Virus genome (UHGV): UHGV-0186667
Source of the DNA: a virus
Reading direction: 5' to 3' (one strand)
DNA length: 32,635 nt
In this document: positions 7,904 to 20,651 of the stretch, piece after piece
Numbering within the stretch: position 1 is the stretch's first letter
How the letters are laid out: every line of letters starts with the position of its first letter
Translations under genes and position numbers: made by a program
The notes under the pieces: generated by a model
The model's input: the letters and a program-made list of their open reading frames with translations, nothing else
Database searches by the model: none
Told to the model about the DNA's origin: nothing

Positions 7904-8119
7904 ATGTCAAGCATCGCCGCATTTAGCCTGGGTAACCCAGTTGAACGTCTGGCAAGGGTTCTTAAAGAGAACCAGGACAAACTCAATCTTAGTAAAGATG
8001 GTTTTGTGTCCGTAGACTTGTCTAACAAAAGAGCAATGGATGCCATCAAGGCACAGATGGATAAGCTTGAAGGCATCAAAACGAGCACTGTAAAAGAGAA
8101 AACTAATAGAACCAGATAA
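7904..8119 (+). CDS. Hypothetical small soluble protein, first gene of a two-gene cargo operon
   Basis: 71-aa ORF with strong SD AAGGGGGAG 4 nt upstream; its stop overlaps the next start (TAATG). No recognisable family. Confidence 0.5.
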   Translation: MSSIAAFSLGNPVERLARVLKENQDKLNLSKDGFVSVDLSNKRAMDAIKAQMDKLEGIKTSTVKEKTNRTR

Positions 8120-8961
8120 TGGCAACATTACTTTTAGCAGTGATTTTGGTTAGTGGTTTTATTTATGTAAACCTATCACTTTCAACAAGATACCGATATA
8201 AGCGTTCCAACGGCTGGGACGCTTATTTTTTTGTGGCTGCCTGGGGTATCGTTTTTTTTCTCCTTGGCGGTTTTTTCACCTTTATTTTGAACGTCAGCGG
8301 AGGGTTTCGTTGGCTGGCTAATGCCTTGAATCTAACACCTGACAGTTTTAATGGCATGTTGTCTTCATCGAAAGACAAACTTCAAAGAATAAATGAAATC
8401 AAACAGATAGCATGGGTTATGATTTCAATTGTCCTCGCTGCGATTTCAGGTTTTGGAAATAAGTTACGCACATCACGTGGAGATCGTCGTTGGGATGCCT
8501 TAGCTAAAGCTGTGGGTAATAACGCTTTCGAATCATTACTCATGGAAGCGTCCGCAAGACAGTTTCCGATCATAGCAACTCTGTCGTCTCGCAAAATCTA
8601 TGTTGGTCTTGTTACTTGTCCGGCGTTAGAAAACGGGCTTTCAGAGCACCTTGAACTTCTCCCGATGTTAAGCGGATATCGGGATAAAGATGATCTAACG
8701 ATTAGTATCACGACTAACTATCACCAACATTATCTTGATAGTGGTGTGATAAGTGGAATGTCTCGGCTTAATATCGAAGATTTCCGTGTGCTCATACCAA
8801 AAGATGAGGTTGAAACAATTTCGTTTTTTGATACTGAGACATATAACAAATTTAAAGAAAATGAAGCCAGGGATAGAAAGAACTGTCGAAAGATTGATAG
8901 TAAAAGTGCATCTTCGCGCAGCAAGCGTGCAGCAGATGCTGAGTCAAATGATCGTGCATGA
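8119..8961 (+). CDS. Hypothetical membrane protein with three predicted TM helices and a soluble C-terminal domain
   Basis: 280 aa. Hydrophobic segments at about aa 3-19, 35-57 and 96-112; C-terminal ~170 aa soluble with a basic tail. Visibly AT-rich compared with phage core genes. Confidence 0.6.
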   Translation: MATLLLAVILVSGFIYVNLSLSTRYRYKRSNGWDAYFFVAAWGIVFFLLGGFFTFILNVSGGFRWLANALNLTPDSFNGMLSSSKDKLQRINEIKQIAWVMISIVLAAISGFGNKLRTSRGDRRWDALAKAVGNNAFESLLMEASARQFPIIATLSSRKIYVGLVTCPALENGLSEHLELLPMLSGYRDKDDLTISITTNYHQHYLDSGVISGMSRLNIEDFRVLIPKDEVETISFFDTETYNKFKENEARDRKNCRKIDSKSASSRSKRAADAESNDRA

Positions 8962-9198: not shown

Positions 9199-10872
9199 AT
9201 GGAAAAATATCAAGATGAGGAATATGTAGATGATTTAACTGAGCGTGTTTTTCTCATTAAGCAACAACTGGAAGCGGGAAAACTAAAAATAGCTCATCAT
9301 CTTGTAGAAGGTTTTATTGAAAGTTTTAAAAGAATAAGGCTGCGACAGGATGGTAAAGTTGACCCTTCTACTGTTGATGGCAGAATAAGGGCTATGGGAG
9401 CAGCGGTTAATCACTTTTTAGAAAGAGAAGATATAAAAAACAAATACTCTATTCAGGACTTGCAAAGTTCTTACTTTAATATTCTTTTTAGTAATTTTGG
9501 CGAGTTGTTTTATCTGATGAAAAAAACTAATGCAACGCCACATAAAGCATCAAGTTTTTTTTCTCAACAAGAAGAATATGTTAAGCAAATAGAAGATATT
9601 TTTCCTGAGTTATATAATCAGGTAATAGAGTTTTGGCAGGTAACATCCGATATTGGTGTAATACATTTGCAGGATGGTTCTCAGTTTAAAGCTAATTTTT
9701 CTGGTGACTTATTTCCTGCATTTGATGAGAATGCTGTCTCTATTGCAGGGTTGTATGTTGATACTATTTCACTTCCATGTCCTATATTAAGAGTCGGTCG
9801 TCTCTATGAAAAGTCAGATAAGGCTGAGTTTACAAGGATACTTCTGAAGCATGTCCTAACATGTATGACATATAAAGAAGTAGCGCTTGAAGATATAGAG
9901 CCAGCAATAGTATTAATTTTGCCGGATAGAAGAGATTTTGAAACTGAGAGCAAAAAAAATTTGATGAGTTTTTGTGAGCCTTATGCTCTGACTCATGCGC
10001 AATATCTCTATGATCGACGGTTCGAAAGCTACGATGAATTTCGAGATTTTAGTTATTCGATGAATGATATTGATGCTGTTCTTAAAAATATTAAGAGAGC
10101 AGATAGACTTATTTTTGATACAGCATGGGGGCTAAATCCAAAAACTCAATTAGAAAAACTACTATCTGATAAAAAAAGAATATCACGTAATGTTGTTGGT
10201 GATCATGCTGGAATGGAGGTTTTCCTTTCCTGCATTGGAAGAATGCCGCAAGCCTATTCAGCAAAATGTAATGCACAAGAACTTGGTAGTACTCCATATA
10301 TAAATGCAGACACATCTTGGCTCTATTATACTTGGCTTATTGAGTACGAATCTCTTAATTTTGATGTCAATGATATTGAACTAAAAAATTTGCATATGGT
10401 TCATGCGTTATCTGCTGGTATGCAAGATGGTTTTTCATGGTTAGGAAATGTACCGGTCAATAAAATAATTGAGTTGAGACGTAACAAATTGATGGAGGAT
10501 GTAAGATCCATCTTATCAAATGGTGTTGACTCTTTAATCAATTCTTCGGCAGAGAGCTTTTCGAGGACAACGCAAAAAGTAATTGATAATGTAGACCGGG
10601 CTTTTATTGAACATCAAAGGATTCTTGCAAAAGCCCAAAAAGAGAAATTGAGAATTTACGGACTAGATGTCCTACCATGTATCGCAAATGGTGCTATAGC
10701 AATTGCTGGAGCGCTGACTGGCAATACTACTTTAACGGCGTTAAGTGCAGGCCTTGGAGTAATAGGTATTCCGAGTATTAGTGATATCAAATCTAAATTT
10801 AAGCAGAGGCAAGAGAAGCTTGATGCCTATCAACGTTCTGTTACAGGTATACTCTTTAGCCATAAATCTTAA
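9199..10872 (+). CDS. Hypothetical 557-aa cargo protein with C-terminal hydrophobic Gly/Ala-rich segment
   Basis: Long uninterrupted ORF, strongly AT-rich, SD GGAG 5 nt upstream. No Walker A, no YxDD, no recognisable catalytic motif. C-terminal stretch IANGAIAIAGALTGNTTLTALSAGLGVIGIPSI looks membrane-inserting. Confidence 0.7.
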   Translation: MEKYQDEEYVDDLTERVFLIKQQLEAGKLKIAHHLVEGFIESFKRIRLRQDGKVDPSTVDGRIRAMGAAVNHFLEREDIKNKYSIQDLQSSYFNILFSNFGELFYLMKKTNATPHKASSFFSQQEEYVKQIEDIFPELYNQVIEFWQVTSDIGVIHLQDGSQFKANFSGDLFPAFDENAVSIAGLYVDTISLPCPILRVGRLYEKSDKAEFTRILLKHVLTCMTYKEVALEDIEPAIVLILPDRRDFETESKKNLMSFCEPYALTHAQYLYDRRFESYDEFRDFSYSMNDIDAVLKNIKRADRLIFDTAWGLNPKTQLEKLLSDKKRISRNVVGDHAGMEVFLSCIGRMPQAYSAKCNAQELGSTPYINADTSWLYYTWLIEYESLNFDVNDIELKNLHMVHALSAGMQDGFSWLGNVPVNKIIELRRNKLMEDVRSILSNGVDSLINSSAESFSRTTQKVIDNVDRAFIEHQRILAKAQKEKLRIYGLDVLPCIANGAIAIAGALTGNTTLTALSAGLGVIGIPSISDIKSKFKQRQEKLDAYQRSVTGILFSHKS

Positions 10873-11935: not shown

Positions 11936-13698
11936 AAAATCTCCACAATATTACTGGTATTGGCGGACTCGCCCTGCAGTGGTTCGTTAAACAGTGCGTG
12001 CATTGTTGCCCAGGCCAGATCGGCGTGGCTGGCTTCTTCGCTGCGGCTGGCTTCATAGGTCGGGCGGTTGCCGCTGGCGGTGGTGGCGCGACGGATTGCC
12101 ATGAATGACTGCGCAATGTCGGTGTGCCCGGCGTCAAACTCCAGACGGCGGTGGCTGATAATGTCGTAGGCCTTGAGCACCAGGGCGTTTTTAACGTTGG
12201 GGTTGTAGACAAACTCCCGGACGGCAGGAAAGAATGCTTTCACGTTCTCGTAAACCCCGTGACCAACGCCGGTTGAGTCGATACCGATATAAGTCACGTT
12301 GTACTGTTCGGTCAGTTTTTTGATGGCGTCAGCCTGAGCGCGGAAGTCCATCCCGCGCCACTGGTGACGCTCAAGAATGCGGAATTTACCGCCCGGTACG
12401 GCTGGCGGTGCCACCACCACGCATCCGGCACTGTCGCCGTTCTGAGTACCTTTTGCGGGGTCATAACCGATCCATACTTCGCGCCAGCCAAACGGGCGCA
12501 GGGCCAGTGCATGAAAGTCGGTCCAGATTTCCCAGCTGTCCACCATGCACGCCTGCAGTTCGCTGAGCGGGAACACGGACGCGAGATCGTCCACGAACTC
12601 GCACATCAGCAGGTTCTGGTATTCGTCCGGGCTGTACTCCATGCGCAGCTGGTCGAGGTCGAACAGGTTACAGCCGCCGCGCACCGCATCTTCCACGGTG
12701 ACTATCTGGCGGTATTGCCCGTCTGCGCACAGCAGGCCGGGGGCCAGATTGCTGTGGGACAGGTCGATGTCCACCTTGTCAGCTTTGTTGCGTCCACGGT
12801 TGAACAGCGCACCGGACCAGAACGGATAAGCACTGTGGGTCAGGCTGGATGGCGTGGAAAAATAGGTTTGTCGCCATTTCTTGTGAATAGCCATCCCGGA
12901 AGCCACTTTGCGCAGCTCCTGGAATTTCGGGATCCAGAAATATTCATCCAGATACAGGTTGCCGTGGTAACTCTGGGCCGTGCGGGCATTGGTTCCGAGG
13001 AAGTAAAGCGTGGCCCCATTAGGAAGCACCATCGGATCGCCTTTCAGCTCCACCTCCACTTCTTTGGCGAAGTCGATGATGTACTGCTTAAAGACGTGGG
13101 CCTGTGCCTTGCTGGCGGAAAGGAAAATCTGGTTACGCCCGGTTAGCAGGGCGTCAATCAGGGCTTCACGGGCAAAATAGAAGGTCGCGCCGATCTGGCG
13201 TGACTTCAGCAGGTTGCGGATGCGGTTGGTTTTTCCGGCTTCCCACCAGTGGCGCTGGTAGTTGAACATGGAGGAATGGAAGATTTCTTCCAGCTTCTCA
13301 ATCTGTTCATCGGTGAAAACGTTCTTTTCCGGCTGACGGCGCGGGCCTTTGTTGCGGTTGGCGACGTTAGGGTTTAAGTCGGCTTCGTTGCCGCCATTGT
13401 TAAACTTGCCGATCCGCGCATGGCGCTCCGACTGGCGCGCCAGCAGGTCAATCTCTTTGAAATCTTTCCCTTCTTTGTGCTCCTTCATAATGAGCTGGCA
13501 GTAGCGTGCGGCGGTGGTGAGCTGCATCTGATCCAGCGGCCCATAGTCACCCCACTTGTCGCGTTTTTTCCAGCTGTGAACGGTTGCAACTTTCTCGCCC
13601 AGCATTTCAGCAATGCGGGCTACGCGGTATCCCTGAAAGTACAGCAGCATGGCCTGCCGACGGGGATCGAGATCTGCGGGTGTCAGTGTGGTGTTCAT
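11932..13698 (-). CDS. P: Terminase large subunit, ATPase (P2 gpP)
   Basis: 588 aa (P2 P is about 590), minus strand, divergent from the capsid operon. Confidence 0.85.
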   Translation of the reverse strand: MNTTLTPADLDPRRQAMLLYFQGYRVARIAEMLGEKVATVHSWKKRDKWGDYGPLDQMQLTTAARYCQLIMKEHKEGKDFKEIDLLARQSERHARIGKFNNGGNEADLNPNVANRNKGPRRQPEKNVFTDEQIEKLEEIFHSSMFNYQRHWWEAGKTNRIRNLLKSRQIGATFYFAREALIDALLTGRNQIFLSASKAQAHVFKQYIIDFAKEVEVELKGDPMVLPNGATLYFLGTNARTAQSYHGNLYLDEYFWIPKFQELRKVASGMAIHKKWRQTYFSTPSSLTHSAYPFWSGALFNRGRNKADKVDIDLSHSNLAPGLLCADGQYRQIVTVEDAVRGGCNLFDLDQLRMEYSPDEYQNLLMCEFVDDLASVFPLSELQACMVDSWEIWTDFHALALRPFGWREVWIGYDPAKGTQNGDSAGCVVVAPPAVPGGKFRILERHQWRGMDFRAQADAIKKLTEQYNVTYIGIDSTGVGHGVYENVKAFFPAVREFVYNPNVKNALVLKAYDIISHRRLEFDAGHTDIAQSFMAIRRATTASGNRPTYEASRSEEASHADLAWATMHALFNEPLQGESANTSNIVEIF

Positions 13699-13744
13699 GG
13701 CACAAACCTACAGCCTTGAATGAAGGCTTTCCCCGCCTGCGGTT

Positions 13745-13762
13745 TGTGTGGTTGTCGGTACA
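13745..13762. promoter_or_regulatory. Late promoter activator site (Ogr-type TGT-N12-ACA dyad)
   Basis: TGTGTGGTTGTCGGTACA in the P/O divergent intergenic region, centred about 87 bp upstream of the O start codon. Confidence 0.5.
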
Positions 13763-13840
13763 AATACCGCGCATTGTTTCACTGCCCCCATCACCGCAAC
13801 CATAAGGCTCCAGTAAGTTTTTTCTAACGGAGCACGGCTC

Positions 13841-18815: not shown

Positions 18816-19209
18816 AGCGGTGCCTTATGTCCGCAATAACCCGGACAAACTGCATCTGTTTGTGGATAACGGTTCGCTGGTTGCCACGGGGGCCAGCTCC
18901 ATGTCATGGGAGTACCGCTATACCCTGAACGTGGTGATAGAGGATTTCAGCGGCGACCAGAATCTGCTGATGGCCCCGGTTTTACTGTGGCTTCGGGATA
19001 ACCAGCCCGATGCCATCAATAACCCGGCGTTACGGGAAAAGCTATTCACCTTTGAGGTGGATATTTTGCGCAACGATGTCTGTGATATCAGCCTTAACCT
19101 GCAACTGACGGAACGTGTGCTGGTCAGTACTGACGGCAGTGTGTCGAGCGTTGAAGCTGTAGCAGAACCCGATGAACCTGAAGAAATGTGGACGGTGAAA
19201 CGTGGCTGA
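18778..19209 (+). CDS. R: Tail completion protein R
   Basis: Resembles P2 gpR (KP.SLR.AL...FVDNG). No ATG is present; GTG 18778 is the likely start, while the ORF track begins at TTG 18757. Confidence 0.7.
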   Translation: MNKPQSLRHALNKAVPYVRNNPDKLHLFVDNGSLVATGASSMSWEYRYTLNVVIEDFSGDQNLLMAPVLLWLRDNQPDAINNPALREKLFTFEVDILRNDVCDISLNLQLTERVLVSTDGSVSSVEAVAEPDEPEEMWTVKRG

Positions 19210-19648
19210 ACTGCAGAAGGTGGACGACTGGCTGAGTGCCTTGCTGGCGAATCTGGAACCAGCCAAGAGAAGCAGCATGATGCGCCAGCTGGCGCAGGAA
19301 CTGCGCCGGACACAGCAGCAGAATATCAGGATGCAGCGCAATCCAGATGGCAGCAGTTATGAACCGCGCAGGGTAACAGCACGCAGCAAAAAAGGCCGCA
19401 TCAAACGTCAGATGTTTGCAAAGCTGCGCACCACAAAATACCTGAAAACTGCCGCCAGCGCCGACTCTGCCAGCGTACACTTTGAAGGCAAGGTGCAGCG
19501 TATTGCCCGTGTTCACCATTACGGCCTGCGTGATCGCGTCAGTCGCAAAGGACCGGAGGTCCGTTACGCAGAGCGCCGCCTGCTGGGTGTAAATGATGAT
19601 GTTGAGGCAATGACCCGCGACATGATTCTGCAATGGCTGGCGGGGTGA
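19202..19648 (+). CDS. S: Tail completion protein S
   Basis: 148 aa (P2 S is about 150), directly after R. Confidence 0.75.
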   Translation: MAELQKVDDWLSALLANLEPAKRSSMMRQLAQELRRTQQQNIRMQRNPDGSSYEPRRVTARSKKGRIKRQMFAKLRTTKYLKTAASADSASVHFEGKVQRIARVHHYGLRDRVSRKGPEVRYAERRLLGVNDDVEAMTRDMILQWLAG

Positions 19649-19652
19649 TCTT

Positions 19653-19670
19653 TGTATCAGCAGTGATACA
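19653..19670. promoter_or_regulatory. Candidate late promoter dyad upstream of V
   Basis: TGTATCAGCAGTGATACA, part of a longer palindrome TTGTATCA-GCAG-TGATACAA, 47 bp upstream of the V start. Could also act as a terminator for the S operon. Confidence 0.4.
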
Positions 19671-19716
19671 AGTTGCAGCACTGCCGCCTTTCTTCCCCTG
19701 ATGGCAACCTTTCCCT

Positions 19717-20295
19717 ATGAACGCACAATTAACCGAAATCATGCGCCTTATCACCAACCTGATTCGCACAGGGGTAGTCACCGAAGTGGACAGGGAAAAC
19801 TGGCTTTGCCGGGTGAAAACGGGCGAGCTTGAAACCAACTGGATTAGCTGGCTGACGCTGCGTGCCGGGAATGCCCGCACATGGTGGCGACCATCGGAAG
19901 GTGAGCAGGTGGTGCTGCTGAGTCTGGGCGGCAATCTGGAAACCGCCTTTGCGCTGCCCGCTGTCTATTCGAATCAGTTCGCACCACCGTCGACGTCGGC
20001 GGACGCCTGCGTGACAGAACATCCTGACGGTGGCTGGTTTGAATACGAACCCGCCACCGGGCGCTGGTATGTCAGGGGCATCAAATCAATGGTCATTGAA
20101 GCCGCTGACAACATCACCATGAAAACCAGTGAGTTTGTACTGGAGGCTGACCACACGCGTATTAACAGCGAAGTGGTGATCAATGGTGGCGTTACCCAGG
20201 GCGGCGGAGCGATGAGTTCTAACGGGATCGTGGTTGATGCGCATCAGCATACTGACGTCCTGAAAGGCGGCGATACAACCGGAGGCCCGGTATGA
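19717..20295 (+). CDS. V: Baseplate spike protein (P2 gpV)
   Basis: 192 aa; N-terminal region aligns by eye with P2 V (IRTG, WLTLRAG..RTWW.PS.GEQV). Confidence 0.85.
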   Translation: MNAQLTEIMRLITNLIRTGVVTEVDRENWLCRVKTGELETNWISWLTLRAGNARTWWRPSEGEQVVLLSLGGNLETAFALPAVYSNQFAPPSTSADACVTEHPDGGWFEYEPATGRWYVRGIKSMVIEAADNITMKTSEFVLEADHTRINSEVVINGGVTQGGGAMSSNGIVVDAHQHTDVLKGGDTTGGPV

Positions 20296-20651
20296 CGCTT
20301 TATATCGGGATGAACAATACCAGCGGTAAAACCATTACTGATATTGACCATCTGCGTCAGTCGGTGCGGGACATTCTACTGACACCGCAGGGTAGCCGCA
20401 TTGCCCGTCGTGAATATGGTTCCCTGCTGTCGTCGCTAATAGACCAGCCACAAAATCCGGCATTACGCCTGCAGGTCATGTCGGCAGTGTATGTGGCGCT
20501 GAGTCGCTGGGAGCCACGGATGACGCTGGATTCCATCACCATCAACAGCAATTTTGACGGTTCAATGGTGGTGGCGCTGAGCGGGCGGCGTAATAACGGT
20601 GTGCCTGTTTCCCTTTCCGTATCAACAGGAGCAGAGAATGGCAGTGATTGA
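20292..20651 (+). CDS. W: Baseplate wedge protein (P2 gpW)
   Basis: 119 aa (P2 W is about 115). Confidence 0.8.
   Translation: MTLYIGMNNTSGKTITDIDHLRQSVRDILLTPQGSRIARREYGSLLSSLIDQPQNPALRLQVMSAVYVALSRWEPRMTLDSITINSNFDGSMVVALSGRRNNGVPVSLSVSTGAENGSD

Follow-up and report, generated by a model that had tools for sequence, protein, structure and literature searches.

The perfect palindrome in the short gap between the S-like and V-like genes is very probably the activator box in the late promoter (P_V) that drives the baseplate/tail-fibre operon of a Fels-2-like prophage of the P2 family. The distance from the box to the V start codon is the same as in the annotated V promoter of phage P2, and it is kept in nearly all families of otherwise unrelated DNA found upstream of V. 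The P_V box is a further instance of a well-described element, whose transcription start has already been mapped in P2.

The dyad and its sister boxes

The window, that is the whole 32,635-nt stretch of virus genome UHGV-0186667 that was analysed, is a P2-family prophage. It carries the integrase-side end, cos, and head, lysis and tail genes, and its last base is that of the gene D stop codon. The phage has a tum-type SOS module. As shown in Table 1, a 68-bp gap (19649-19716) separates the S-like ORF from the V-like ORF. The S-like gene closes the upstream late operon, which corresponds to the O-to-S operon of P2. According to the ORF map and the homologies, the dyad stands directly upstream of the late morphogenetic operon V-W-J-I-H. 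The V-like protein is ~41% identical to P2-type V, 85% to Fels-2-type V (Salmonella phage SE479_1PHIH2) and 99% to the V of Cartapus, and its N-terminus starts with MN, like that of P2 V.

Table 1. Positions of genes, boxes and promoter elements in the window.
Feature	Position	Strand	Basis or remark
S-like tail-completion gene	19202..19648	+	ORF map; homologous stretches annotated as P2 gpS-like (Fels-2, other phages)
Perfect dyad TTGTATCA-GCAG-TGATACAA	19652..19671	.	Predicted Ogr/B/Delta-type activator site for P_V
CTGCC, -35 region	19681..19685	+	Invariant columns C70-C74 of alignment A1; not a sigma-70 -35 consensus
TGGCAACCT, -10 element	19702..19710	+	Columns 91-99 of A1, invariant or near-invariant
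Predicted transcription start, A of V ATG	19717..19717	+	Inferred; same geometry as annotated in P2
V-like baseplate spike/assembly gene	19717..20295	+	First gene of the V-W-J-I-H operon
Sister box TTGTGTGG-TTGT-CGGTACAA	13744..13763	.	Located between P and O; 5/8 arm positions match
Sister box TTGTGTGA-ATAA-CGGTACAA	25703..25722	.	Upstream of FI-like sheath gene (25798); arms match 4/8

The dyad starts 4 nt 3′ of the S-like stop codon. Its two arms of 8 bp, TTGTATCA (19652-19659) and TGATACAA (19664-19671), form a perfect inverted repeat around the 4-nt spacer GCAG (19660-19663), and the TGT-N12-ACA core occupies 19653-19670. The same arms and spacer were obtained from the sequence and from a repeat finder, in agreement with the original prediction of a perfect palindrome with 8-bp arms that fits TGT-N12-ACA. 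The centre of the dyad (19661.5) lies 55.5 bp from the V ATG. The final A of ACA lies 47 bp from this ATG, which is also the distance that had been predicted.

The palindrome alone is no proof of a function. TGT-N12-ACA is not enriched in the window (7 sites, 8.9 expected), and perfect palindromes with 8-bp arms are near chance (5 in the window, 3.4 ± 2.1 expected). The longer motif TTGT-N12-ACAA was found at 4 sites, where 0.75 were expected. Three of the four are located where P2-type late promoters are expected, at 13744 (P/O), 19652 (V) and 25703 (FI). The case for more than chance rests on position and on conservation across relatives.

The box between P and O corresponds to the arrangement in P2, in which one box is common to pP and pO. 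The terminase gene P is encoded on the minus strand, and its ATG (13698) is 55.5 bp away from the centre of this box (13753.5). P has the hexamer TAGGTT at -12 to -7, and no Shine-Dalgarno (SD) sequence is nearby (13696-13763). P may also be leaderless in the window, unlike in P2 with its annotated 23-nt P leader. The fourth TTGT-N12-ACAA site, TTGTCTTC-ATCG-AAAGACAA at 8359-8378, has arms that match at 7/8 positions. It lies near cos inside a cargo ORF of 280 amino acids (8119-8961) and may be either a chance occurrence or an internal late-regulated start.

Register and probable core promoter upstream of V

In the P2 reference record (NC_001895), the activator binding site of pV spans 10239-10266, and transcription of the V operon is annotated as starting at 10308, the same base with which the V CDS opens. 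The distance from the annotated site centre to the start is 55.5 bp, identical to that in the window. Like P2 P_V, the region upstream of V in the window has no SD sequence, no -35 consensus and a CAAYCT-type -10 element, and it heads the V-W-J-I-H operon. P2 P_V also differs from the window. The P2 pV box, TTGTCTGG-TAG-TTCTACAA, is imperfect and of the N11 type, whereas the window box is perfect, has 8-bp arms and is of the N12 type. The P2 box is one base further from the ATG. P2 carries orf30 and a strong terminator between S and the box, while in the window the S stop codon is 4 nt before the box and there is no terminator.

The four Ogr-dependent late promoters of P2 share the consensus TGT-N12-ACA (PMC3931495). 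P2 P_P, P_O and P_F, P4 P_sid and P_LL, and the 186 late promoters carry this motif at about -55 together with a weak core (PMC3931495). These other Ogr/Delta/B-dependent promoters share the dependence on a small zinc-finger activator (PMC3931495), but their mRNAs carry leaders, which in P2 measure 23 nt for P and 40 nt for O.

Closer likenesses were found in Fels-2, Yersinia phage vB_YpM_MLG42 and Klebsiella phage ST13-OXA48phi12.1, all of which have a homologous 68-bp S-V gap. A perfect or near-perfect palindrome occurs at the same place in each, followed by the same CTGCC and TGGCAAYCT. ST13-OXA48phi12.1 has one additional base between the -10 element and the ATG.

To cover the family more widely, 320 loci were fetched with four V queries (window, P2, Fels-2 and Klebsiella ST13-OXA48phi12.1), and 315 of them passed the scoring filters. 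Loci whose V is ~98% identical to that of the window have upstream DNA of many unrelated types, because differing cargo is inserted between S and V. Homology among these loci breaks exactly at the V ATG, and every type keeps the TTGT-N12-ACAA register. When the insert-type upstream regions were clustered at <60% mutual identity, 53 families were obtained. Of these 53 unrelated families, 52 have a TTGT whose first base lies at -64 to -67. This result, together with the geometry of the P2 pV annotation, bears out the late promoter dyad that had been proposed. Where cargo parts the two genes, the TTGT...ACAA box accompanies V and not S.

The offsets of TTGT and of the -10 hexamer change together. 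The pair (-65, -12) was found 20 times, (-66, -13) 12 times and (-67, -14) 3 times. The hexamer moves with the dyad, so the distance from dyad to -10 element is fixed, and the -10 element lies 7-9 nt before the A of the ATG. When the 52 families were anchored on the dyad and positions were counted from the start of TTGT, the conserved positions were TTGT, ACAA, G-C-A at +53 to +55 and T at +59. The G-C-A and T positions correspond to TGGCAACCT in the window. In 62 compact relatives TTGT...ACAA is invariant, and TGGCAACCT and CTGCC are invariant or nearly so.

Within the box, it is the spacer that varies most across the lineage. GCAG of the window is one base apart from the GCAC found in 69 relatives and in both nearest records. 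The register and sequence of the box also vary across the wider family. The P2 box is of the N11 type, and phages 186 and PSP3 (L085:2160-2230 and L175) have compact S-V gaps in which only the left half-site, TTGTGTGA, can be recognised at the expected place, with no ACA at N10-N13. A compact junction of P2 type with a 66-bp S-V gap (L092:2425-2503) has an imperfect box, TTGTGCCA-TTCC-CGACACCT. In this junction a strong GC hairpin, GCCGCCGG-N6-CCGGCGGC, is located inside the promoter, between the box and the -10 element, and the 79-nt stretch containing it folds at -23.6 kcal/mol.

The S-V junction, the site of orf30 in P2, is a highly variable cargo site across the loci collected (L002-L340), with at least 53 unrelated upstream families, each of which supplies a P_V promoter of its own that reaches as far as the V ATG. 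The locus has already been described as variable (PMC3091744). One cargo gene (L076:127-1416), which is antisense to V and encodes 429 amino acids, matches the PADLOC candidate defence family PDC-S59 (E = 1.7e-197). No Pfam family was found for four S-V cargo proteins including P2 Orf30, and P2 Orf30 and the Cartapus and RE-2010 cargo gave no match in Pfam or PADLOC.

The core promoter of P_V is weak. A promoter scan called no sigma-70-type promoter in 19000-20300. In the unrelated families a weak tTGc element occupies the place matching CTGCC. The -10-like hexamer CAACCT (19705-19710) stands at -12 to -7, with A at -11 and T at -7 relative to 19717, and is preceded by TG-G. Only 2 of its 6 positions agree with TATAAT.

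The start of V has the features of a leaderless gene. In E. coli, leaderless mRNAs require an AUG start codon. The start codon of V is ATG in all 315 loci, and a pyrimidine precedes it at -1 in 298 of them. No SD-like 4-mer is present at -20 to -4 of V in the window, while one is present at 14 of 18 other late genes of the window that were checked. Among the insert-type families, only 2 of 53 have an SD-like 4-mer upstream of V. An AUG start and the lack of a Shine-Dalgarno sequence, the two sequence marks of leaderless mRNAs, are thus both found at V. Taken with the pyrimidine at -1 and the fixed register, they fit a transcript that starts on the AUG or 1-2 nt before it. The V mRNA is predicted to be leaderless, or to have a leader of 0-1 nt. 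A longer leader of 1-2 nt may occur in relatives whose -10 element is placed 1-2 nt further upstream.

The original prediction had considered the dyad too close to V for the usual spacing unless the leader is very short. This concern is answered by P2, whose V leader has zero length in the reference annotation: the start is placed on the first base of V, in the same geometry. P2 is also listed among the few leaderless genes recognised in E. coli, after Christie & Calendar 1985 (PMC4633059).

The palindrome as a possible RNA hairpin or terminator

The dyad had been put forward as a promoter element, a terminator or both. Of the last of these, the promoter part holds and the intrinsic terminator does not, while compensated changes in the arms leave a role as RNA hairpin as a weaker idea. 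According to this idea, the palindrome would have a dual use, serving on DNA as the activator box and, in read-through transcripts, as an RNA hairpin located 4 nt past the stop codon of S. We consider this rather improbable. Such a hairpin could possibly act as a 3′ end stabiliser, as a pause or processing site, or as a weak or factor-dependent terminator.

The evidence in its favour comes from the matching of the arms. Three compensated, perfect or near-perfect versions of the inner arm bases occur in the lineage with the 68-bp gap, namely ATCA/TGAT in the window, GCCA/TGGC in Fels-2 and GTCA/TGAC in ST13-OXA48phi12.1, and the spacers differ too. In 62 distinct compact sequences, 94.8% of the cells pair, and 36 cells are changed on both arms, compared with 6.4 in shuffles. 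When the partner was slid by 1-3 columns, pairing fell to 27-48%. Boxes next to cargo are imperfect, with a mean hairpin energy of -3.4 kcal/mol against -9.4 kcal/mol for the compact ones, a contrast that is inflated by shared ancestry since the compact sequences are homologous. The consensus of the cargo type, TTGTRYCA-N4-TCATACAA, lacks symmetry at positions 7 and 14, which suggests that perfect symmetry is not simply the ideal activator site. The arms of the P/O and FI boxes in the window, which presumably bind the same activator, match at only 5/8 and 4/8 positions. The stem of Fels-2 is stacked on a lower stem rich in GC (-28.9 kcal/mol, z = -2.4), and in Aeromonas phage vB_AsaM_LPM4 the box is contained within a 14-bp perfect hairpin (z = -6.0).

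The LPM4 junction (L178:515-603) has TGT-N13-ACA upstream of V. Its hairpin is without a U-tract, and its z value was obtained from the 89-nt stretch.

A symmetric protein dimer, or templated correction of a quasi-palindrome, could equally keep the arms matched. No U-tract follows the hairpin in the window. In addition, the boxes of the compact P2-type (66-bp gap) and 186/PSP3 junctions are imperfect, so the perfect palindrome is not general. Pairing states were also mapped on a tree built from the flanking sequence. All intermediates at pairs 5 and 6 are G.U, and the loop-closing pair is A.C on the plus strand in 14 sequences. Strand-specific wobble was considered as proof of an RNA hairpin; once A.C was counted there was no significant strand bias, and this argument was downgraded to suggestive. 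That the box is under double DNA/RNA selection where S and V abut, in the Fels-2-like 68-bp junctions and independently in LPM4, is accordingly put forward with little confidence. If it were true, the box hairpin would stand in for the hairpin, a separate terminator or stabiliser, found next to orf30 in P2, and a single 20-bp element would end or protect the head/lysis message and start the next, leaderless one.

It is very improbable that the palindrome, instead of being a promoter element, ends the upstream late operon as a rho-independent terminator, in the way of the P2 terminator after S. No other hairpin directly follows the S stop codon in the window, and P2 has a hairpin annotated as the O-operon terminator 30 nt after S (-26.8 kcal/mol, z = -5.9). 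The box hairpin is of another kind. It is A/U-rich and 8-9 bp long, with 8 Watson-Crick pairs, of which 2 are G-C, and one U.G; it folds at -8.5 kcal/mol and is followed by GUUGCAGC rather than a U-tract. A terminator scan did not call the palindrome, and at cargo loci the box travels with V instead of S. In Cartapus and RE-2010, which carry cargo at the S-V site, no terminator-like site was found between S and V. The terminator that had been put forward as one option is therefore not supported as an intrinsic terminator, and read-through from S into V is likely; such transcripts would give V no SD sequence.

A larger fold at 19635-19688, in which UUUCUU would follow a GC-rich stem, was also considered and rejected. 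Its z value of -0.35 is no better than that of shuffled sequence, and its outer stem was not recovered in the consensus fold of the 62 relatives (RNAalifold).

That the palindrome arose by chance, or that it binds a regulator of another kind, for example a CRP-like protein, is barely credible: the counts of perfect palindromes and of TGT-N12-ACA in the window would allow chance, but the register to the V ATG is kept across the unrelated families, two sister boxes sit at other late promoters of the window, and the N12 spacing of the dyad differs from the N10 between TGT and ACA in the CRP consensus TGTGA-N6-TCACA.

Proposed late activation of V

With the palindrome read as the activator box of P_V, the following course of events is proposed. 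During the late lytic phase, the TTGT...ACAA dyad centred at -55.5 would be bound by a small Ogr/B/Delta-family activator with a zinc finger. The activator gene is expected just to the right of the window. In the nearest provirus (G002), whose box differs only by one spacer base (GCAC for GCAG), an Ogr_Delta gene (Pfam, 74 bits) with the motif CX2C-X22-C-X4-C lies directly after gene D. The activator would bring the host's sigma-70 RNA polymerase to this promoter, which lacks a usable -35 element and has only the weak -10 element TG-G-CAACCT. Transcription would begin on the A of the V ATG or about one base from it. The resulting V mRNA, leaderless and lacking a Shine-Dalgarno sequence, would then be translated, and translation of W would follow through the stop/start overlap with V. 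From the features, the geometry and the conservation described above we infer the binding of the activator, the exact start point and the leaderless translation.

For annotation, this reading assigns the start codon of V, its promoter P_V and the boundary of the operon in the prophage, and it explains why V has no ribosome-binding site. The perfect-palindrome variant gives a small example, amenable to testing, of an element that may act both as DNA and as RNA. At the S-V cargo site, the register of dyad, -10 element and ATG has outlasted dozens of complete replacements of the promoter DNA. The fact that the register survives these replacements makes a leaderless or near-leaderless V message look like a conserved design of enterobacterial P2-like phages and not a peculiarity of P2, and the S-V loci form a useful natural test set for leaderless translation in E. 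coli and its relatives.
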